Of a stretch of DNA of 64,000 nt, positions 42,716 to 52,647 are shown piece by piece. A model generated the notes under the pieces. It searched no databases. It was not told the origin of the DNA and saw nothing but the letters and a program-made list of their open reading frames with translations. The stretch is from Dehalococcoidia bacterium (GTDB lineage Bacteria > Chloroflexota > Dehalococcoidia > Bin125): contig OZ242281.1 in the NCBI GenBank assembly GCA_965207365.1, positions 2,173,331 to 2,237,330 on the forward strand, written 5' to 3'. Position 1 is the stretch's first letter. Every line of letters begins with the position of its first letter. A program made the position numbers and the translations under genes.

Positions 42716-43810
42716 ATGGCGTACGAGTTGAGGCTCTCCCATCACTCAGATGACGAGCGAACGCTGCGGGCCTTAGACGCAATAGAGCGAAGGCGCGAGA
42801 TTGCGCGAGCGCTCGTGCCAGCGGGTTATGAGGCGTATTTCCAGGATCAGGCACGATTTCTCAGCGCGCACACCACGGTGTCCATCGAAGGGAACCGCTT
42901 GGACTATCAGTCCGTGCAAGTAGCTCTGCTGCATGAGTCAACCGACCCCAACCGGCGAGAAGCGAAGAATGCGGTGGAAGCCTACGAATTCGCGGGCGAG
43001 ATGGCTCAGGATCCCAACCTGCACATCGATTCTGGACTGATGCGGACCTTCAACTCATTCTTGCTCAAAGGACTACCAGGCCGTGTCGGCAGTGAGCGAG
43101 GCCGCTATCGACCAGGTGGCGCCTTGATTCAGGACAGCGTCACCGGGCAGATCAACTACTACGCGCCACCGCCACAATGGGTGGCGGACCTTATACGCTC
43201 TCTCGAGCTTGGGATCAGTGAGTGGATGCAGACGGATCCTCCAGAAATTGCTGCTGCCAAGTCGCATTTCGGCTTGATCAGCATCCACCCGTTTTTCGAC
43301 GGCAACGGTCGCACAGCACGACTCATCGCCGACCTCGTTCTAAACATGACCAACCGCTCTGCTGAAGGCATGCTGTCGATCAGCGGGGTTCTGCTCAAGC
43401 GCCGAGCGGAATACTACGAAGCGCTTCGCACCTCGCAAGGTCCTGAGTTCACGGAGCACGTTGACGTCACCGAGTTTGTCCGATTCCACACAGAGTCGCT
43501 CGCAACTGCAGTTACTGAGCTGGAGGAGAGGACGAGAGTAATGGACATGAGGCGAATTGCATTAGAGCGGGCATACCTAGAGGTACTGAACCCACGCCGT
43601 CTCATTGGCCTGCTTTACCTCTTCGACATTGGCCCGCTGTCGACTTCAGCGTATGCGCGCTTTGCCGGCTGCTCTCAGCAAACCGCACTATCGGACCTGA
43701 ATGAACTCACCGAAGCCTCAGTGGTCGAGCGTCTCGGCAGAGCTTCGGCTACGCGATATGAGCTCACGCGCGCTGCGAAAGCACTGATCGAGGGCGTGGA
43801 CCGGGTCTGA
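42716..43810 (+). CDS. Fic-family AMPylase-type protein with N-terminal inhibitory motif and C-terminal wHTH-like region
   Basis: Active site HPFFDGNGRTARL. TVSIEGN fits the (S/T)xxxE(G/N) inhibitory helix. The C-terminus (TALSDLNELTEASVVERLGRASATRY) looks wHTH-like. Confidence 0.85.
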   Translation: MAYELRLSHHSDDERTLRALDAIERRREIARALVPAGYEAYFQDQARFLSAHTTVSIEGNRLDYQSVQVALLHESTDPNRREAKNAVEAYEFAGEMAQDPNLHIDSGLMRTFNSFLLKGLPGRVGSERGRYRPGGALIQDSVTGQINYYAPPPQWVADLIRSLELGISEWMQTDPPEIAAAKSHFGLISIHPFFDGNGRTARLIADLVLNMTNRSAEGMLSISGVLLKRRAEYYEALRTSQGPEFTEHVDVTEFVRFHTESLATAVTELEERTRVMDMRRIALERAYLEVLNPRRLIGLLYLFDIGPLSTSAYARFAGCSQQTALSDLNELTEASVVERLGRASATRYELTRAAKALIEGVDRV

Positions 43811-46492: not shown

Positions 46493-46498
46493 GTGCTG

Positions 46499-47194
46499 CT
46501 ACAGCTGAAGCGCCAACTGTTCAGGCTCCCGCTCGGAGCTTGTCTCCGCTAGCTCCAAGTGCACTTGGATCGCCTCGAGGAGCGCGGCTTCTGAGTCAAC
46601 GATGGTCACTAGTTCCTGCGACACAAACTGATCGAGATGTTGGCGGCCGATTTCAGGTTTCGACCAACCGATCACGACTGGCATCTGCCGCTTGACCGCC
46701 TTCTTGATCGCGTCGAGCGTGCCGCCCTTTTCGCCGGGATCGACCGCGACCAGGACGCGGCCAAGCGCGCAGATCGTATCGTTGCGCTGCATCGCTCGCC
46801 ATACGGTCCATCGGGCATTCGACTCGAACTGTGAGACCACAGTGAGATGGTCGCGAATGTCGTCCCATGGTTCTATGGCTGCCTGTAGTTCGCGCCGCGG
46901 TCTGAACTTGTCCGGAAGTCCCTCCGCCAGTACCGCGATTGTGTGTCCACCAGCGGCGACGCATGCCACATGGCCAGCCATATCGACTCCCCTAGCGTAT
47001 CCGCTGACGAGGGGCAGATTCAATTCGGCCGCGAAAGAGCCTGCTGCTCTTGCGAACTCAATGCCCCGCTCTCCAGCGGCGCGAGAGCCACACAGGGCTA
47101 TACCGGGATCGTTTAGACGCTCTATCTGACCGAAGACTGCCAGATTGCCAAGTGAGCCCGCACGGATTGAAGTAGTGGAATCTGTTGTGGTCAT
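46499..47194 (-). CDS. shosA: DprA/Smf-fold (SLOG) protein, ShosA-like antitoxin candidate
   Basis: LVSGYARGVDMAGHVACVAAGGHTIAVLAEGL...MQRNDTICALGRVLVAVDPGEKGGTLDAIKKAV matches the DprA Rossmann core. No SAM or DML1 domains. Lies 11 nt downstream of the PRTase gene. Confidence 0.6.
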   Translation of the reverse strand: MTTTDSTTSIRAGSLGNLAVFGQIERLNDPGIALCGSRAAGERGIEFARAAGSFAAELNLPLVSGYARGVDMAGHVACVAAGGHTIAVLAEGLPDKFRPRRELQAAIEPWDDIRDHLTVVSQFESNARWTVWRAMQRNDTICALGRVLVAVDPGEKGGTLDAIKKAVKRQMPVVIGWSKPEIGRQHLDQFVSQELVTIVDSEAALLEAIQVHLELAETSSEREPEQLALQL

Positions 47195-47205
47195 TGGACG
47201 GCCTG

Positions 47206-48099
47206 TCAGCAGAAGAGTAAGTCGTTGCGGTCATTTTCGGTGGATTCAGGATGCCAATCAGGCCAGTTGTCCACACTTGCGGGAAGTCCATTGCAGTGTT
47301 TGGCGGTCTTGGTAAGCGAAAGACAATGGACGGCAGTGGCTCCTGCACGTCGAAGTGTTTTGACACCTGCCATCATCGTGTCTCCGCTGCGATAGAGGTC
47401 GTCAACAAGCAGTAAACGTTTTCCGAACACGTCTCTGTCCGCGTTCATCATTGCACTAAGAGCGTTGACATTGCGTACGTTTGATTCCGCCCTACCCTTT
47501 TGTGGCGTCTGATTGCGTGAGCGCAACCAAGCCCGCTTCTTCCCGAATCTCAAGCAGATCGCATCTGCAATCGCAGCAGGCAGGTCGAAATTCTTGGCTT
47601 GAGTCCCTGGTATTGCTGCAACTGCATCGACGGATTGGATCGGAATGTAGCTTGTCAGCCAATCCAGACACGCGCGCCGCAGCTGGTCAACTGCCTGAGG
47701 CTCGGAAGGGTTGCCAAGACCGTAGTCCTTGGCCTGCTGTACGAGATCGCCCAAAATCGAACGCTCTTCAATGTCTGCAAACCGTTGAAGCCCCAGGGCG
47801 TGCGACGAGTCGGCCTCGTCGTCGATAGTCACGCTCTTGCCCAGCAACTCCAGAAATGCCCGCGTCGGTGCGTAGACGTCACCGCGACGCGCGGAGACAA
47901 CCACCGAGTGCGTAGTCACGCTCTGCCTCACCTCAACATCTATCGGCAGTGCCCGTTGAATGAGGGACTGGAAGCGACTGAGCATGCGCTCCGGCTGAAT
48001 TTTGGCAGCCAGTTGCCACCCACCAGGCACCTGGGCATAATCAACGCCTTTCACACGACCACAGTCTGGCATTTCTCCATGCTCCTCAGCAGGGAACAA
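47206..48099 (-). CDS. shosT: ComF-like phosphoribosyltransferase, ShosT-like toxin candidate
   Basis: PRPP loop KRLLLVDDLYRSGDTMMAG, preceded by NVRNVNALSAMM (ComF-like). No ComFC Cys4 zinc finger. An alternative start is ATG 48072. Lower GC: 31/60 at 47461-47520. Confidence 0.6.
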   Translation of the reverse strand: MFPAEEHGEMPDCGRVKGVDYAQVPGGWQLAAKIQPERMLSRFQSLIQRALPIDVEVRQSVTTHSVVVSARRGDVYAPTRAFLELLGKSVTIDDEADSSHALGLQRFADIEERSILGDLVQQAKDYGLGNPSEPQAVDQLRRACLDWLTSYIPIQSVDAVAAIPGTQAKNFDLPAAIADAICLRFGKKRAWLRSRNQTPQKGRAESNVRNVNALSAMMNADRDVFGKRLLLVDDLYRSGDTMMAGVKTLRRAGATAVHCLSLTKTAKHCNGLPASVDNWPDWHPESTENDRNDLLFC

Positions 48100-48142
48100 T
48101 ATAGCATGGATGGTCTATGTAAACCTAATGGGCGCAAATCGG

Positions 48143-49303
48143 CTACAACGACCCATAGATCGCGTCGATCAGCGCGGCTGCCCTGATATCGTGGGCGACT
48201 TCGGTGCCCATTCGGTTCATTACGTAGCCGAAGCCGATTCCGGCGTCGAGATCGGCGTAACCCAACGAACCTCCGGCACCGGGGTGGCCGAAGACTCTTG
48301 GGTTGGGGCCCCACGGCGTTGAATCTGCTGTCAGGGCCCAGCCGAGACCGAAGCGTGTGTTGATTCCAATGCAGGTGTCGGGTCCGTTGGTCTGCTCGGT
48401 GATGCCCTGCTCAATGGTCTCGGGGTTGAGCACGTGAATCCCGTCGATTTCACCGCCGTTGGCCGCGCCTCCGTAGATCCTTGCCAGCGCGCTCGCGGTG
48501 GCGTGTCCGTTGGCGGCGGGGATCTCCGCGGCTCGCCAGGCCCGTTGCGAGGCCACTGCGGGGCCTCCTGGATTGAACACCGGCGGGTTGATCACAGCGA
48601 CGATACCGACACTGTCCGGGTCGCCGAAGAGATCGCTGGTCGGAGGGAAGTCGGCTGCGATCTGTGGTTCGATCACCGTTGATATGCGGGCGTCAAACTC
48701 TGGGCCCGTGCCGATGTGCGCATCCAGTCCGAGCGGCGCCGCAAACTCTTCTCGGAAGTAGGCGCCGATCGAGCGCCCGTCAACTCGTCTCACCACTTCT
48801 CCGACGAGCCAGCCGAAGGTCATGGCGTGGTAACCGTGTTTTTCGCCCGGTGTCCACCACGGTTTCTGTGCAGCCAGGGCTTCGGTCATGGTCTCCCAGT
48901 CGTACATGTCTTCTTGCACGAGGGGCTTTGAGATCGCGGCCAAGCCCGCCTTGTGACAGAGCAGCCAGCGAACCGGGATCGATTCCTTACCGGCGGCGGC
49001 AAACTCCGGCCAGTATTCGGCGACCGGAACGTCGAGGTCGAGCTTGCCCTCCTCGACCAATCGATGCGCGCAGAAGGCGACCAGCCCCTTGGTTGACGAA
49101 TACACGTTGACCAGGGTGTTGCGGTCCCACTCGCGCTCCCGATCAGGCGCGTACCAACCGCCCCAGAGGTCGACGACCGGCTCGCCGTTGAGATAGACGG
49201 CGATGGCCGCGCCTACTTCGTCGCGCTCGGCGAAGTTGTTTTCGAAGGCCTCTCGAACGGCTTCGAATCGTGGGTCGTTCCAGCCGTGGATTGGGACTGC
49301 CAT
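48143..49303 (-). CDS. beta-lactamase-family serine hydrolase (paralog A)
   Basis: YSSTKGLVAFCAHRL (SxxK). AGGAGA RBS. Confidence 0.82.
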   Translation of the reverse strand: MAVPIHGWNDPRFEAVREAFENNFAERDEVGAAIAVYLNGEPVVDLWGGWYAPDREREWDRNTLVNVYSSTKGLVAFCAHRLVEEGKLDLDVPVAEYWPEFAAAGKESIPVRWLLCHKAGLAAISKPLVQEDMYDWETMTEALAAQKPWWTPGEKHGYHAMTFGWLVGEVVRRVDGRSIGAYFREEFAAPLGLDAHIGTGPEFDARISTVIEPQIAADFPPTSDLFGDPDSVGIVAVINPPVFNPGGPAVASQRAWRAAEIPAANGHATASALARIYGGAANGGEIDGIHVLNPETIEQGITEQTNGPDTCIGINTRFGLGWALTADSTPWGPNPRVFGHPGAGGSLGYADLDAGIGFGYVMNRMGTEVAHDIRAAALIDAIYGSL

Positions 49304-51871: not shown

Positions 51872-52210
51872 ATGAGCACGGAACGTCGAACAGTCACTGT
51901 AGAGCTCGAGGCCGAGATCGAGGGTCGAGCACAGATCGCTGCGGCGCGTCGCGGTATGAGCTTGAGTCGCTACTGTGAAGCAGCAATCGCGGGGGAGGTC
52001 GACCGCGATGAAACTGAGACGCTAAGGCCTCATTTCACCGGCGCCAAGATCATTGTCCGCACGAAGAAGCGCGGCAACCGGGAGGCGATTGAACGCTTGC
52101 GAGAGTCTCGCAACAAAATCTTCAAGGGCAGACCACTGCAAAGCGATTCCGTGGATATCGTCCGAGAGATGCGGGAGGAGCGTGACGCCCAGTTAGACGA
52201 GTGGAGATGA
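51872..52210 (+). CDS. vapB: RHH (CopG-like) antitoxin, VapB-type
   Basis: TVTVELEAEIEGRAQIAAARRGMSLSRYCEAAI. Its stop overlaps the PIN gene start (ATGA). Confidence 0.6.
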   Translation: MSTERRTVTVELEAEIEGRAQIAAARRGMSLSRYCEAAIAGEVDRDETETLRPHFTGAKIIVRTKKRGNREAIERLRESRNKIFKGRPLQSDSVDIVREMREERDAQLDEWR

Positions 52211-52647
52211 CAGAGCCAGTCGTCGTCGATTCGAATCTCGTGGTTAAGTGGTTAGTTCTTGAGGGAGACTCGCACTTGGCGGACGAGCTGCAGACGCATT
52301 GGGACAATCAAGGGATAGAGCTGCTGGCTCCGTCTCTGTTGTTTTTCGAGCTGACGAACGTCCTCCATAAGTATGTTCGACGAGGGGCGCTGTCCGATCT
52401 CTCCGCTATCGAGTTGCTCGATCGAATGAGAGCATTTGATATCACGCTGGTTCAAGACCTCTCGCTCCATCGCAGAGCACTGCAGCTCGCAAGCGAGCTC
52501 GGGCAGGGTGCCGTGTACGACTCCCACTACCTCGCCTTAGCCGAAAATGTCGACTGTGAGTTCTGGACCGCCGACGGTCGATTTTACCGAGCAGCATTAC
52601 CCCGTTTCGACCGTGTTCGTTGGCTGGGTGAGGTCGCCCTCAGATAG
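52207..52647 (+). CDS. vapC: PIN-domain toxin VapC
   Basis: VVVDSNLVVKWLV (first acidic residue), followed by YDSHYLALAE and FWTADGRF. Confidence 0.75.
   Translation: MTEPVVVDSNLVVKWLVLEGDSHLADELQTHWDNQGIELLAPSLLFFELTNVLHKYVRRGALSDLSAIELLDRMRAFDITLVQDLSLHRRALQLASELGQGAVYDSHYLALAENVDCEFWTADGRFYRAALPRFDRVRWLGEVALR

Follow-up and report, generated by a model that had tools for sequence, protein, structure and literature searches.

ShosTA is a type IV toxin-antitoxin (TA) and anti-phage system of E. coli APEC O1, for which structures are available (PDB 8ZVA-8ZVD, 9VZO; PMC11961720, PMC12961424). Its toxin, the 424-aa phosphoribosyltransferase (PRTase) ShosT, carries a PPase-like Rossmann N-terminal domain (residues 1-164, five-stranded parallel sheet), and mutation D331A/D332A abolishes its toxicity (PMC11961720, PMC12961424). 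The antitoxin ShosA is DprA-like, with an N-terminal SAM domain (residues 1-94) needed for stability; once deprived of SAM, ShosA loses both stability and activity in E. coli. An unstable C-terminus is a further trait of this antitoxin. No binding takes place between ShosT and ShosA. Residues R139 and R234 of ShosA are required for both ssDNA binding and antitoxicity (PMC12961424).

The PsyrTA/RqlHI systems were described from P. syringae and E. coli F11 (PMC4670107; Millman 2022 preprint). PsyrT has about 690 aa or more and includes an N-terminal RecQ-like helicase, while PsyrA/RqlI, of about 400 aa, is extended at its N-terminus and bears an HTH at the C-terminus. In RqlH, toxicity resides in the PRPP pocket of the PRTase domain and is abolished by mutation D663A; RqlH also interacts physically with RqlI (PMC4670107). 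Phage protection is conferred by both ShosTA and PsyrTA, and a PRTase is also used as effector by retron abortive-infection systems. To our knowledge, work on ShosTA and PsyrTA has been confined to their large forms, in E. coli and Pseudomonas.

The locus described here lies in a 64,000-nt window (the whole stretch of DNA analysed) of a Dehalococcoidia MAG, in agreement with the Chloroflexota host suggested by the first-pass annotation. It comprises a PRTase gene and, directly downstream on the minus strand, a DprA-like gene, as in ShosTA, where the PRTase toxin gene precedes the DprA-like antitoxin gene, and in PsyrTA/RqlHI. The pair is quite likely a compact two-gene TA/abortive-infection module of the PRTase plus DprA-like class represented by ShosTA and PsyrTA (RqlHI). 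In its putative function, it would be a stripped-down relative of these anti-phage TA systems. The predicted toxicity, neutralization, trigger, and anti-phage activity are all taken from homologues, namely E. coli systems with larger proteins of only remote similarity. The ShosTA match proposed in the first-pass annotation held for the domain pair, gene order, tight coupling, and PADLOC and Foldseek results, but the pair is compact, non-canonical, and scores nearer PsyrT/PsyrA. Since ShosT with its PPase domain and ShosA with its SAM domain are larger, the pair was considered a compact variant rather than a canonical ShosTA.

The coordinates of the two genes and their features are listed in the table. 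The ORF coordinates bore out the two minus-strand genes with an 11-nt spacer reported earlier, and all previously quoted peptide motifs are present in the sequences. The PRTase start was corrected. The longer ORF (47206..48099, minus strand) opens at the TTG at 48099 that had been chosen as the start, but nearly all full-length homologues consist of 288 aa and begin with MPxCGR, and a GGAG lies upstream of the ATG at 48072; translation was therefore assigned to this ATG. A gap of 70 nt, containing the promoter match, separates the upstream beta-lactamase-family gene from the PRTase start; no LexA-type box (GAAC-N4-GTTC) was seen by eye in this gap. A terminator scan at the locus found none. 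Judging from the sequence, co-transcription or translational coupling of the two genes is probable.

Features of the PRTase/DprA-like locus (positions in the 64,000-nt window)
Feature	Position	Strand	Basis or remark
Putative toxin gene, PRTase, 288 aa	47206..48072	-	ATG start; stop codon 47206-47208; ORF list
Inter-gene spacer, 11 nt	47195..47205	-	ORF coordinates
Putative antitoxin gene, DprA-like, 231 aa	46499..47194	-	ORF list
Sigma-70-like promoter match TTTACA-16-TATTGT	48096..48123	-	Consensus scan only; not taken as a sign of function
PRTase N-terminus MPDCGRV	48052-48072	-	
N-terminal alpha/beta module of PRTase, residues 1-98	47779..48072	-	AF2 secondary structure; specific to short-form family
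Conserved motif of N-module, SVTIDDEADSSHALG	47791-47835	-	
PRTase catalytic domain, residues ~99-266	47275..47778	-	Profile, Pfam, PDB-sequence, and fold matches
PPi-type loop IPGTQAKNFD	47584-47613	-	
Flexible loop TPQKGRAESNVRNVN	47464-47508	-	
PRPP-binding loop LLLVDDLYRSGDT, residues 220-232	47377..47415	-	D224-D225 invariant in 56 family members
Disordered acidic C-terminal tail of PRTase NWPDWHPESTENDRNDLLFC, residues 269-288	47209..47268	-	AF2; resembles host SSB tip
CGSRAAG motif of DprA-like protein, invariant R38	47072..47092	-	Equivalent to ShosA R139 and HpDprA R52; ssDNA binding
MQRND motif of DprA-like protein, invariant R137	46778..46792	-	Equivalent to ShosA R234 and HpDprA R143; ssDNA binding

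The PRTase was matched by the PADLOC models for PsyrT (9.4e-12, profile positions 554-686 of 689 only, i.e., the C-terminal PRTase) and ShosT (2.7e-5, positions 81-214 of 237). The ShosT match is weak (22 bits), so that sequence similarity to ShosTA is marginal, and a sequence search of PDB at E<=1 returned no ShosT chain. All 56 PRTase family members were recognized by the PsyrT model and 46 of the 56 by the ShosT model. The Pfam Pribosyltran score was 25.9, just below the 26.3 cut-off, and the ComF model TIGR00201 matched at 3.1e-6. In the AF2 model (pLDDT 91), the Foldseek check suggested earlier placed the ShosT PRTase domain (8zvc) first, with a TM-score of 0.47 over 221 columns, against 0.40 for ComF (7p0h) and about 0.32 for APRT. 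Residues P155 and K255 are invariant in the 56-sequence alignment, where K192 is conserved in at least 90% of sequences, being invariant in a 19-sequence subset. The Asp-Asp pair of the PRPP loop is intact, as in ShosT: D224/D225 correspond to ShosT D331/D332 and RqlH D663. The flexible loop carries ComF-like motifs. The reported lack of the ComFC-type zinc-finger cysteines was upheld, C4 being the sole Cys within the first 134 residues.

The unrelated N-terminal domain of the PRTase, previously put at about 190 aa, proved to be an overestimate: the module predicted by AF2 has about 98 aa, and the PRTase fold begins near residue 100, with PADLOC profiles matching from residue ~121-127. Its secondary structure consists of beta-hairpin/alpha repeats, and a Pfam search with the isolated 118 N-terminal residues found nothing at E<=10. 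The module differs from the ShosT N-terminal domain in secondary structure and has a conserved motif of its own, SVTIxDxADxSHALG, in which I83, D85, S90, and A92 are near-invariant in family alignments; the pyrophosphatase domain is absent, as is the helicase of PsyrT. This motif might form the site at which the acceptor substrate of the PRTase binds. In the family search, 653 representative clusters matched at E<=1e-3, the majority of them with 260-300 aa. The long forms of the PRTase family have 800-1029 aa and do not align to the N-module, the family alignment beginning at about residue 70. The PsyrT-type PRTase clade is also fused to other N-terminal parts, for example, HEAT/PD-DExK in P0240. 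Unlike these fusions and the retron effectors, the PRTase studied here stands almost alone: it has just a small N-module of its own and always a DprA-like partner. The compact short form is thus common yet not described in the ShosTA/PsyrTA literature surveyed.

The DprA-like protein was likewise matched by PADLOC defence models, PsyrA at 2.4e-32 and ShosA at 2.2e-26, PsyrTA thus being the top match for both proteins. By profile score, both appear somewhat nearer to PsyrT/PsyrA than to ShosT/ShosA. The 231-aa protein covers only positions 123-272 of the 398-position PsyrA profile, i.e., the DprA core alone. A PDB sequence search matched a ShosA chain at 7.7e-6. Its earlier description as a bare DprA domain was accurate: apart from a weak LDcluster4 match, Pfam found only DNA_processg_A (residues 20-175, 93.6 bits), and the AF2 model (pLDDT 90.6) contains a single Rossmann/SLOG domain spanning residues ~14-200. 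SAM and DML1 domains were found by neither Pfam nor AF2, and no HTH is present in the model. [quoted passage not shown] The 11-aa tail ends with hydrophobic residues (EQLALQL) and has similar counterparts in relatives. The best Foldseek matches were DprA and ShosA (3maj, 3uqz, 8zva), with TMq 0.67-0.69 (8zva, 0.69). The family profile gave 159 bits with competence DprA, more than the 123 bits obtained with ShosA. The ssDNA-binding arginines of the ShosTA type are conserved. The inactivity of SAM-less ShosA in E. coli counts against the proposed module, and an antitoxin that naturally lacks SAM must therefore act in a somewhat different way. The locus suggests what the minimum of the class may be: a PsyrT-type PRTase of about 190 aa, a small N-module, and a bare DprA Rossmann domain.

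The same folds could in principle serve nucleotide metabolism, with a salvage-type PRTase and a SLOG/LOG-like nucleotide-processing enzyme. Weak APRT-like sequence matches (3e-5) and weaker Foldseek matches to LOG, PpnN, and MoCo-carrier proteins, together with the LDcluster4 match, point this way. However, the DprA-specific GSR and RN arginines are invariant, the DprA and ShosA folds match far better than LOG, and a patchy occurrence at a hotspot, a foreign GC3, and shuffling of the cassette, all detailed below, are unexpected for housekeeping metabolism; this reading is highly improbable and was rejected.

Genome comparison placed the presumed TA module at a junction between a CoA-transferase gene and a beta-lactamase gene. 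The orthologous junction is empty in one sister species (G020) and carries other cargo in three more: N6_N4_Mtase and Mrr_cat genes in G003, a methylase with Eco29kI in G008, and a Schlafen/AlbA_2 gene in G034. No sequencing run of known RNA type was found; the runs in which the locus occurs are of unrecorded type, and their contigs included the pair, strain variants of it, and, in run X4, a metagenome relative having both flanks without the pair. The pair therefore sits in a variable defence hotspot with presence/absence polymorphism, which had been proposed as a check in relatives. It occurs in about 13 of the 37 species of the genus. Among 61 related genomes, 16 adjacent PRTase/DprA-like pairs and no orphan full-length toxin were found, in accordance with co-conservation of the two genes. 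A scan with a single protein revealed only three close loci, in Dehalococcoidia/Chloroflexota MAGs, and three more distant DprA-like homologues, all in unrelated contexts, each directly follow a gene of the PRTase family.

The lower local GC noted earlier was confirmed, with sliding-window values of 0.54-0.59 at the pair versus 0.63-0.66 in the flanks and 0.622 for the genome. The GC3 of the two genes is 0.59 and 0.64 versus 0.76-0.78 in the flanks, and the codon composition of both is foreign-looking. This atypical GC3 and the hotspot support the horizontal or accessory status assumed at first. The dS of the pair is 1.4-2.2 versus 0.6-0.9 for the flank, and purifying selection acts on both genes (dN/dS 0.14-0.24; 0.15-0.24 for the PRTase and 0.14-0.22 for the DprA-like gene). 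A 38-nt imperfect direct repeat (74%) with a spacing equal to the cassette length was examined as an insertion scar; it is probably coincidental, because each of the two copies codes for an amphipathic helix at a C-terminus.

Synteny of the pair extends across several species in which its proteins are only ~57-60% identical. Such synteny is more stable than that of typical mobile defence cargo and counts against the proposed abortive-infection module. In addition, tblastn of the PRTase against phage and plasmid collections gave no match at 1e-6, so that nothing points to known mobile elements as carriers. Both observations would suit a selfish addiction module that has no role in phage defence and persists by post-segregational killing or by stabilizing the variable region; it would also be favoured by orphan antitoxins, one of which was found in G036, and by the same TA evidence as the defence module. 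It is nevertheless unlikely, since sister species carry restriction-modification and Schlafen-type genes in the slot and both characterized relatives, ShosTA and PsyrTA, protect against phages.

In G002, the antitoxin is retained beside a 51-aa toxin remnant. TA systems, rather than cooperating partners, typically show this pattern, which bears on whether the two genes could instead be accessory and non-toxic, as paralogues of the competence genes for ComFC and DprA whose products act jointly on ssDNA in DNA uptake or recombination. Both ComFC and DprA function in competence, and they represent the same two folds, a type I PRTase with ComF-like flexible-loop motifs and a DprA Rossmann domain; the ComF similarity of the PRTase and the preference of the DprA-like profile for competence DprA agree with this. 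ComFC and DprA are probably the evolutionary source of the parts. However, the zinc finger, SAM, and DML1 domains are all absent, and the genome encodes a zinc-finger ComFC-like ORF with CxxC motifs and a canonical DprA (375-aa ORF, 255 bits, G000:C1:3099457-3100062) elsewhere. The patchy occurrence at a hotspot is also at variance with competence genes. Assignment to genuine competence genes, which the first-pass annotation had named as a refutation, was thus rejected, and a paralogous DNA-uptake pair is very unlikely.

Within the favoured TA/abortive-infection module, the toxin and antitoxin have been shuffled independently. The toxins of G018 and G007/G009 are 29-30% identical while their antitoxins are 80-85% identical; conversely, G000 and G033 have toxins with 91% and antitoxins with 72% identity. 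The occurrence in one slot of ~30%-identical toxins beside nearly identical antitoxins represents a natural experiment and argues for an antitoxin whose target is the damage rather than the toxin itself. Independent shuffling therefore fits a toxin-independent, indirect (type IV) antitoxin, as in ShosTA-style neutralization.

The following mechanism is suggested by analogy with the characterized systems. The 288-aa PRTase would bind PRPP via its intact loop (D224-D225...T232) and transfer the phosphoribosyl group onto an acceptor, which may perturb nucleotide or DNA metabolism, with damage to DNA or replication stress as the outcome. The DprA-like protein of 231 aa could counteract this indirectly by binding ssDNA through R38 and R137, probably promoting RecA-dependent repair rather than specifically binding the toxin. 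If a phage blocked host gene expression or flooded the cell with ssDNA or SSB intermediates, the antitoxin function would fail and the toxin could stop the infected cell.

The last residues of the disordered PRTase tail (278-288) have pLDDT <50 in the AF2 model. The tail ends with NDLLFC, while those of relatives end with DLPFC, DLPFK, or DLPFE, D-L-P-F-x being conserved in many of them. The host SSB terminates with GDLPFE, a genus-specific tip; the usual SSB tip is DDIPF. A tail of this kind has not been described for ShosT.

The conserved disordered NW...DLPF tail could be a docking peptide gripped by the DprA-like protein, which would then inhibit the PRTase by direct binding, as in a PsyrTA/RqlHI-like type II system. 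The physical interaction of RqlH with RqlI (PMC4670107) and the higher PsyrT/PsyrA scores of both proteins are consistent with such neutralization, and DprA has been reported to bind SSB, whose tip the tail resembles. Against it, toxin and antitoxin do not co-diverge, and this decoupling argues against specific binding of the kind found for RqlH-RqlI; type C toxins without the DLPF tail still keep a DprA-like partner, and ShosT and ShosA do not bind. Direct binding is therefore rather unlikely, and indirect neutralization is preferred.

The tail may, as a tentative and somewhat doubtful suggestion from its sequence, imitate the C-terminal tip of SSB in a form matched to the host. If so, it would connect the PRTase to the network of SSB interactions, or could alternatively serve as a handle by which the DprA-like partner or an SSB-tail-grabbing phage protein holds or releases the toxin. 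Such mimicry would tie this TA class physically and directly to ssDNA and SSB and could explain phage escape from ShosTA via mutations in SSB and primase-helicase genes. Provided that the resemblance is functional, it would suggest a way, open to testing, in which phage replication is sensed by such toxins.

The two adjoining genes encoding a PRTase (putative toxin) and a DprA-like protein (putative antitoxin) quite likely form a toxin-antitoxin/defence module of the class represented by the anti-phage systems ShosTA and PsyrTA/RqlHI. The PRTase stop codon and the start of the DprA-like gene are separated by 11 nt. The PRTase ORF covers 47206 to 48099 when the first TTG is taken as the start; since a length of 288 aa and an MPxCGR N-terminus are shared by nearly all full-length homologues found, and GGAG is located before the downstream ATG, the gene was assigned to start at this ATG. 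All peptide strings quoted in the first-pass annotation, which had proposed a ShosTA-like module, were found in the window proteins. The PRTase indeed lacks the ComFC zinc finger, since its first 134 residues contain one cysteine only, while the "unrelated N-terminal domain" of ~190 aa is actually a module of ~98 aa.

Coordinates of the module, its surroundings, and related loci (window positions unless a genome or locus is given)
Feature	Position	Strand	Remarks
DprA-like gene	46499-47194	minus	231 aa ORF
PRTase gene	47206-48072	minus	288 aa, ATG start at 48072
PRTase disordered tail	47209-47268	minus	NWPDWHPESTENDRNDLLFC
Sigma-70-like match TTTACA-16-TATTGT	70-nt gap upstream of PRTase gene		consensus match only
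Variable junction	about 46493-48142		
38-nt direct repeat	46552-46589 and 48142-48179		imperfect (74%), spacing 1590 nt
Fic-domain gene	42716-43810	plus	
112-aa ORF and PIN-domain gene	51872-52647		PIN-domain gene 52201-52647; both plus strand
Host SSB gene	G000:C1:1349688-1350158	minus	C-terminal end GGGPDAGDLPFE
Zinc-finger ComFC-like gene	G000:C1:1352998-1353552	minus	
PRTase-family partner of P0083	L067:3255-4004		
Extra SSB-like copies (examples)	G033:C1:2877616-2878473, G008:C1:2971871-2973232, G027:C10:142937-143780		

The PRTase matched the Pfam profile Pribosyltran with 25.9 bits, slightly below the threshold of 26.3, and the PADLOC defence models PsyrT (C-terminal PRTase part, 9.4e-12) and ShosT (2.7e-5). 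The AlphaFold2 model made from a 56-sequence alignment was confident (pLDDT 91, pTM 0.89) and predicted a ~98-residue N-terminal alpha/beta module with its own conserved motif SVTIxDxADxSHALG, a PRTase fold at residues ~100-266, and a disordered tail. By TM-score, the nearest solved structure was the PRTase domain of ShosT (8zvc, TMq 0.47 over 221 columns), followed by H. pylori ComF (0.40) and APRT (about 0.32). The PRPP loop is complete (LLLVDDLYRSGDT); D224, D225, P155, and K255 were invariant and K192 nearly invariant among 56 relatives. Acidic residues equivalent to the PRPP-loop pair are needed for the toxicity of ShosT (D331A/D332A; PMC11961720, PMC12961424), and an equivalent one for that of RqlH/PsyrT (D663A; PMC4670107).

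The DprA-like protein matched Pfam DNA_processg_A (93.6 bits) and the PADLOC models PsyrA (2.4e-32) and ShosA (2.2e-26). Its model (pLDDT 90.6) has one Rossmann domain followed by a C-terminal helix and ends in 11 disordered residues; it superposed equally well on competence DprA and ShosA (TMq 0.67-0.69). R38 (GSR motif) and R137 (RN motif), invariant among relatives, aligned to ShosA R139 and R234, which are required for ssDNA binding and antitoxin activity (PMC12961424), and R100 aligned to ShosA K200, a RecA-contacting residue. Assignment of the pair to competence genes was rejected, since the genome encodes elsewhere a canonical DprA (255 bits, 375-aa ORF) and, apart from the window PRTase, a ComF-family protein that has CxxC zinc-finger motifs and scores 68.5 bits versus 27.9 for that PRTase.

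The published ShosT has 424 aa with a pyrophosphatase-like N-domain of 164 aa, and the SAM domain of ShosA is needed for its stability (PMC11961720, PMC12961424); PsyrT has a RecQ-like helicase, and RqlI/PsyrA (~400 aa) carry a C-terminal HTH (PMC4670107). In contrast, neither the N-domain and SAM domain of ShosTA nor the helicase and HTH of PsyrTA/RqlHI are present in the window pair, where Pfam, PADLOC, and AlphaFold2 revealed no trace of them. Since the pair lacks architectural features that define ShosTA and PsyrTA, it is best classed as a compact variant within the wider class rather than as a member of either.

Among 1.84 billion representatives searched exhaustively, 653 matched the PRTase at E<=1e-3, most of them 260-300 aa long with the alignment beginning at about residue 70. 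A few long matches were PsyrT-type helicase fusions, and one (P0240, 415 aa, representative library) joins a HEAT/CxxC/PD-DExK-like N-terminal region to a PsyrT-type PRTase domain, a further architecture of the same toxin module. The clade of this PRTase is therefore modular, and the form encoded in the window is its abundant short one. No PRTase homologues were found in phage and plasmid collections (tblastn, 1e-6).

The host is an uncultured Dehalococcoidia MAG. Close full-length PRTase homologues (56-91% identical) were found in 8 of the 37 species of its genus, versions 30-39% identical in 5, and none in the remainder. The distribution of the DprA-like gene matches, and it adjoins a PRTase-family gene in all cases but two: in G002 (locus L019) only a remnant of 51 C-terminal residues is left of the toxin, next to an intact DprA-like gene, and in G036 (L020) the DprA-like gene is an orphan, before which lie a small membrane ORF and an ORF with a SocA_Panacea domain, possibly a TA pair of another kind. 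A third toxin type (L015 in G025, L016 in G012), 33-39% identical to that of the window, has its own DprA-like partner, lacks the DLPF tail, and is placed between cyclase and beta-lactamase-family genes, a second insertion point ~3 kb away from that in the window. In the class Dehalococcoidia, three other families also contain pairs (G037, G041, and G060), and three remoter DprA-like homologues lie directly downstream of 249-295-aa PRTase-family genes in unrelated contexts. P0083, a distant DprA-like homologue, has as its partner a clear-cut PRTase-family member (hhalign probability 99.6%) that has lost a PRPP-loop segment of roughly 30 residues; it is probably a catalytically dead PRTase retained in the pair.

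On one side of the pair is a conserved double CoA-transferase gene, on the other are beta-lactamase-family genes, and this junction is a variable hotspot (loci L019-L032 in related genomes). The site, which lies downstream of the CoA-transferase stop, is empty in G020, where about 40 nt separate the two stop codons, and a metagenome relative keeps both flanks with the pair absent. Other cargoes include an N6_N4 methylase with an Mrr nuclease domain (N6_N4_Mtase+Mrr_cat; G003), a methylase with Eco29kI endonuclease (G008), a Schlafen/AlbA_2 protein (G034), an LRR protein (G023, L032), and a membrane protein of unassigned function (G017 and G005). One copy of the 38-nt direct repeat lies within the DprA-like gene, in its 3' part, and the other at the 3' terminus of the beta-lactamase-family gene, a spacing close to the cassette length; the repeat could be an insertion scar or chance. 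Extra TA-like genes are located nearby: a Fic-domain gene with lower GC3 immediately past the CoA-transferase gene, and a PIN-domain gene overlapping an upstream 112-aa ORF without a Pfam match, a probable VapBC-like pair.

Both genes of the module are under purifying selection (dN/dS 0.14-0.24). Their dS (1.4-2.2) exceeds the 0.6-0.9 of the adjacent CoA-transferase two- to threefold, and their GC3 (0.59 and 0.64) is far under the 0.76-0.78 of the flanks. The toxin and the antitoxin evolve independently of each other: between G018 and G007 or G009 the toxins are 29-30% and the antitoxins 80-85% identical, whereas between the window's genome and G033 the toxins are 91% identical and the antitoxins only 72% (dS 0.17 versus 1.02). 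Such shuffling is difficult to square with an antitoxin binding its specific toxin and fits the indirect, type IV mode established for ShosA (PMC11961720, PMC12961424). The observations made in this analysis concern architecture, residue conservation, gene pairing, and the hotspot; analogy with the known systems further suggests that the PRTase would use PRPP to modify an acceptor, causing DNA damage, and that the DprA-like protein would rescue the cell by binding ssDNA and promoting RecA-dependent repair. Infection would take away or saturate the antitoxin, leading the cell to abort.

The disordered tail of the toxin resembles the genus-specific SSB tip. It ends with ...NDLLFC in the window and DLPFC/K/E in relatives, and D-L-P-F plus one residue ends many PRTase relatives, some only 31-35% identical. 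The host SSB was identified by Pfam (2.6e-43); of the 13 SSBs checked within the genus, 12 end with PDAGDLPFE and that of G018 with PDAGDMPFE. In a different family, the SSB end is the canonical DDLPF. A loose tail pattern was present in only 4 of 21,787 genome ORFs, namely the SSB, the PRTase, and two probable non-genes, and other PRTase-family tails are like the canonical SSB tip (e.g., ...SWDEDIPF). However, Ser replaces Phe in the tail of 7 of 17 close PRTase homologues, the window tail itself has LLF rather than LPF, and type C toxins are tailless. It is rather doubtful that the resemblance is meaningful; it merits testing because ShosTA escape mutations map to the primase-helicase and SSB genes of phages and binding of SSB by DprA has been reported. 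The canonical zinc-finger ComFC-like gene is located only ~3 kb from the SSB gene. Genomes of this genus contain up to eight SSB-like matches (eight in G003, seven in G033), the extra copies sharing 38-46% identity with the main SSB and being often arranged in tandem pairs or triplets.
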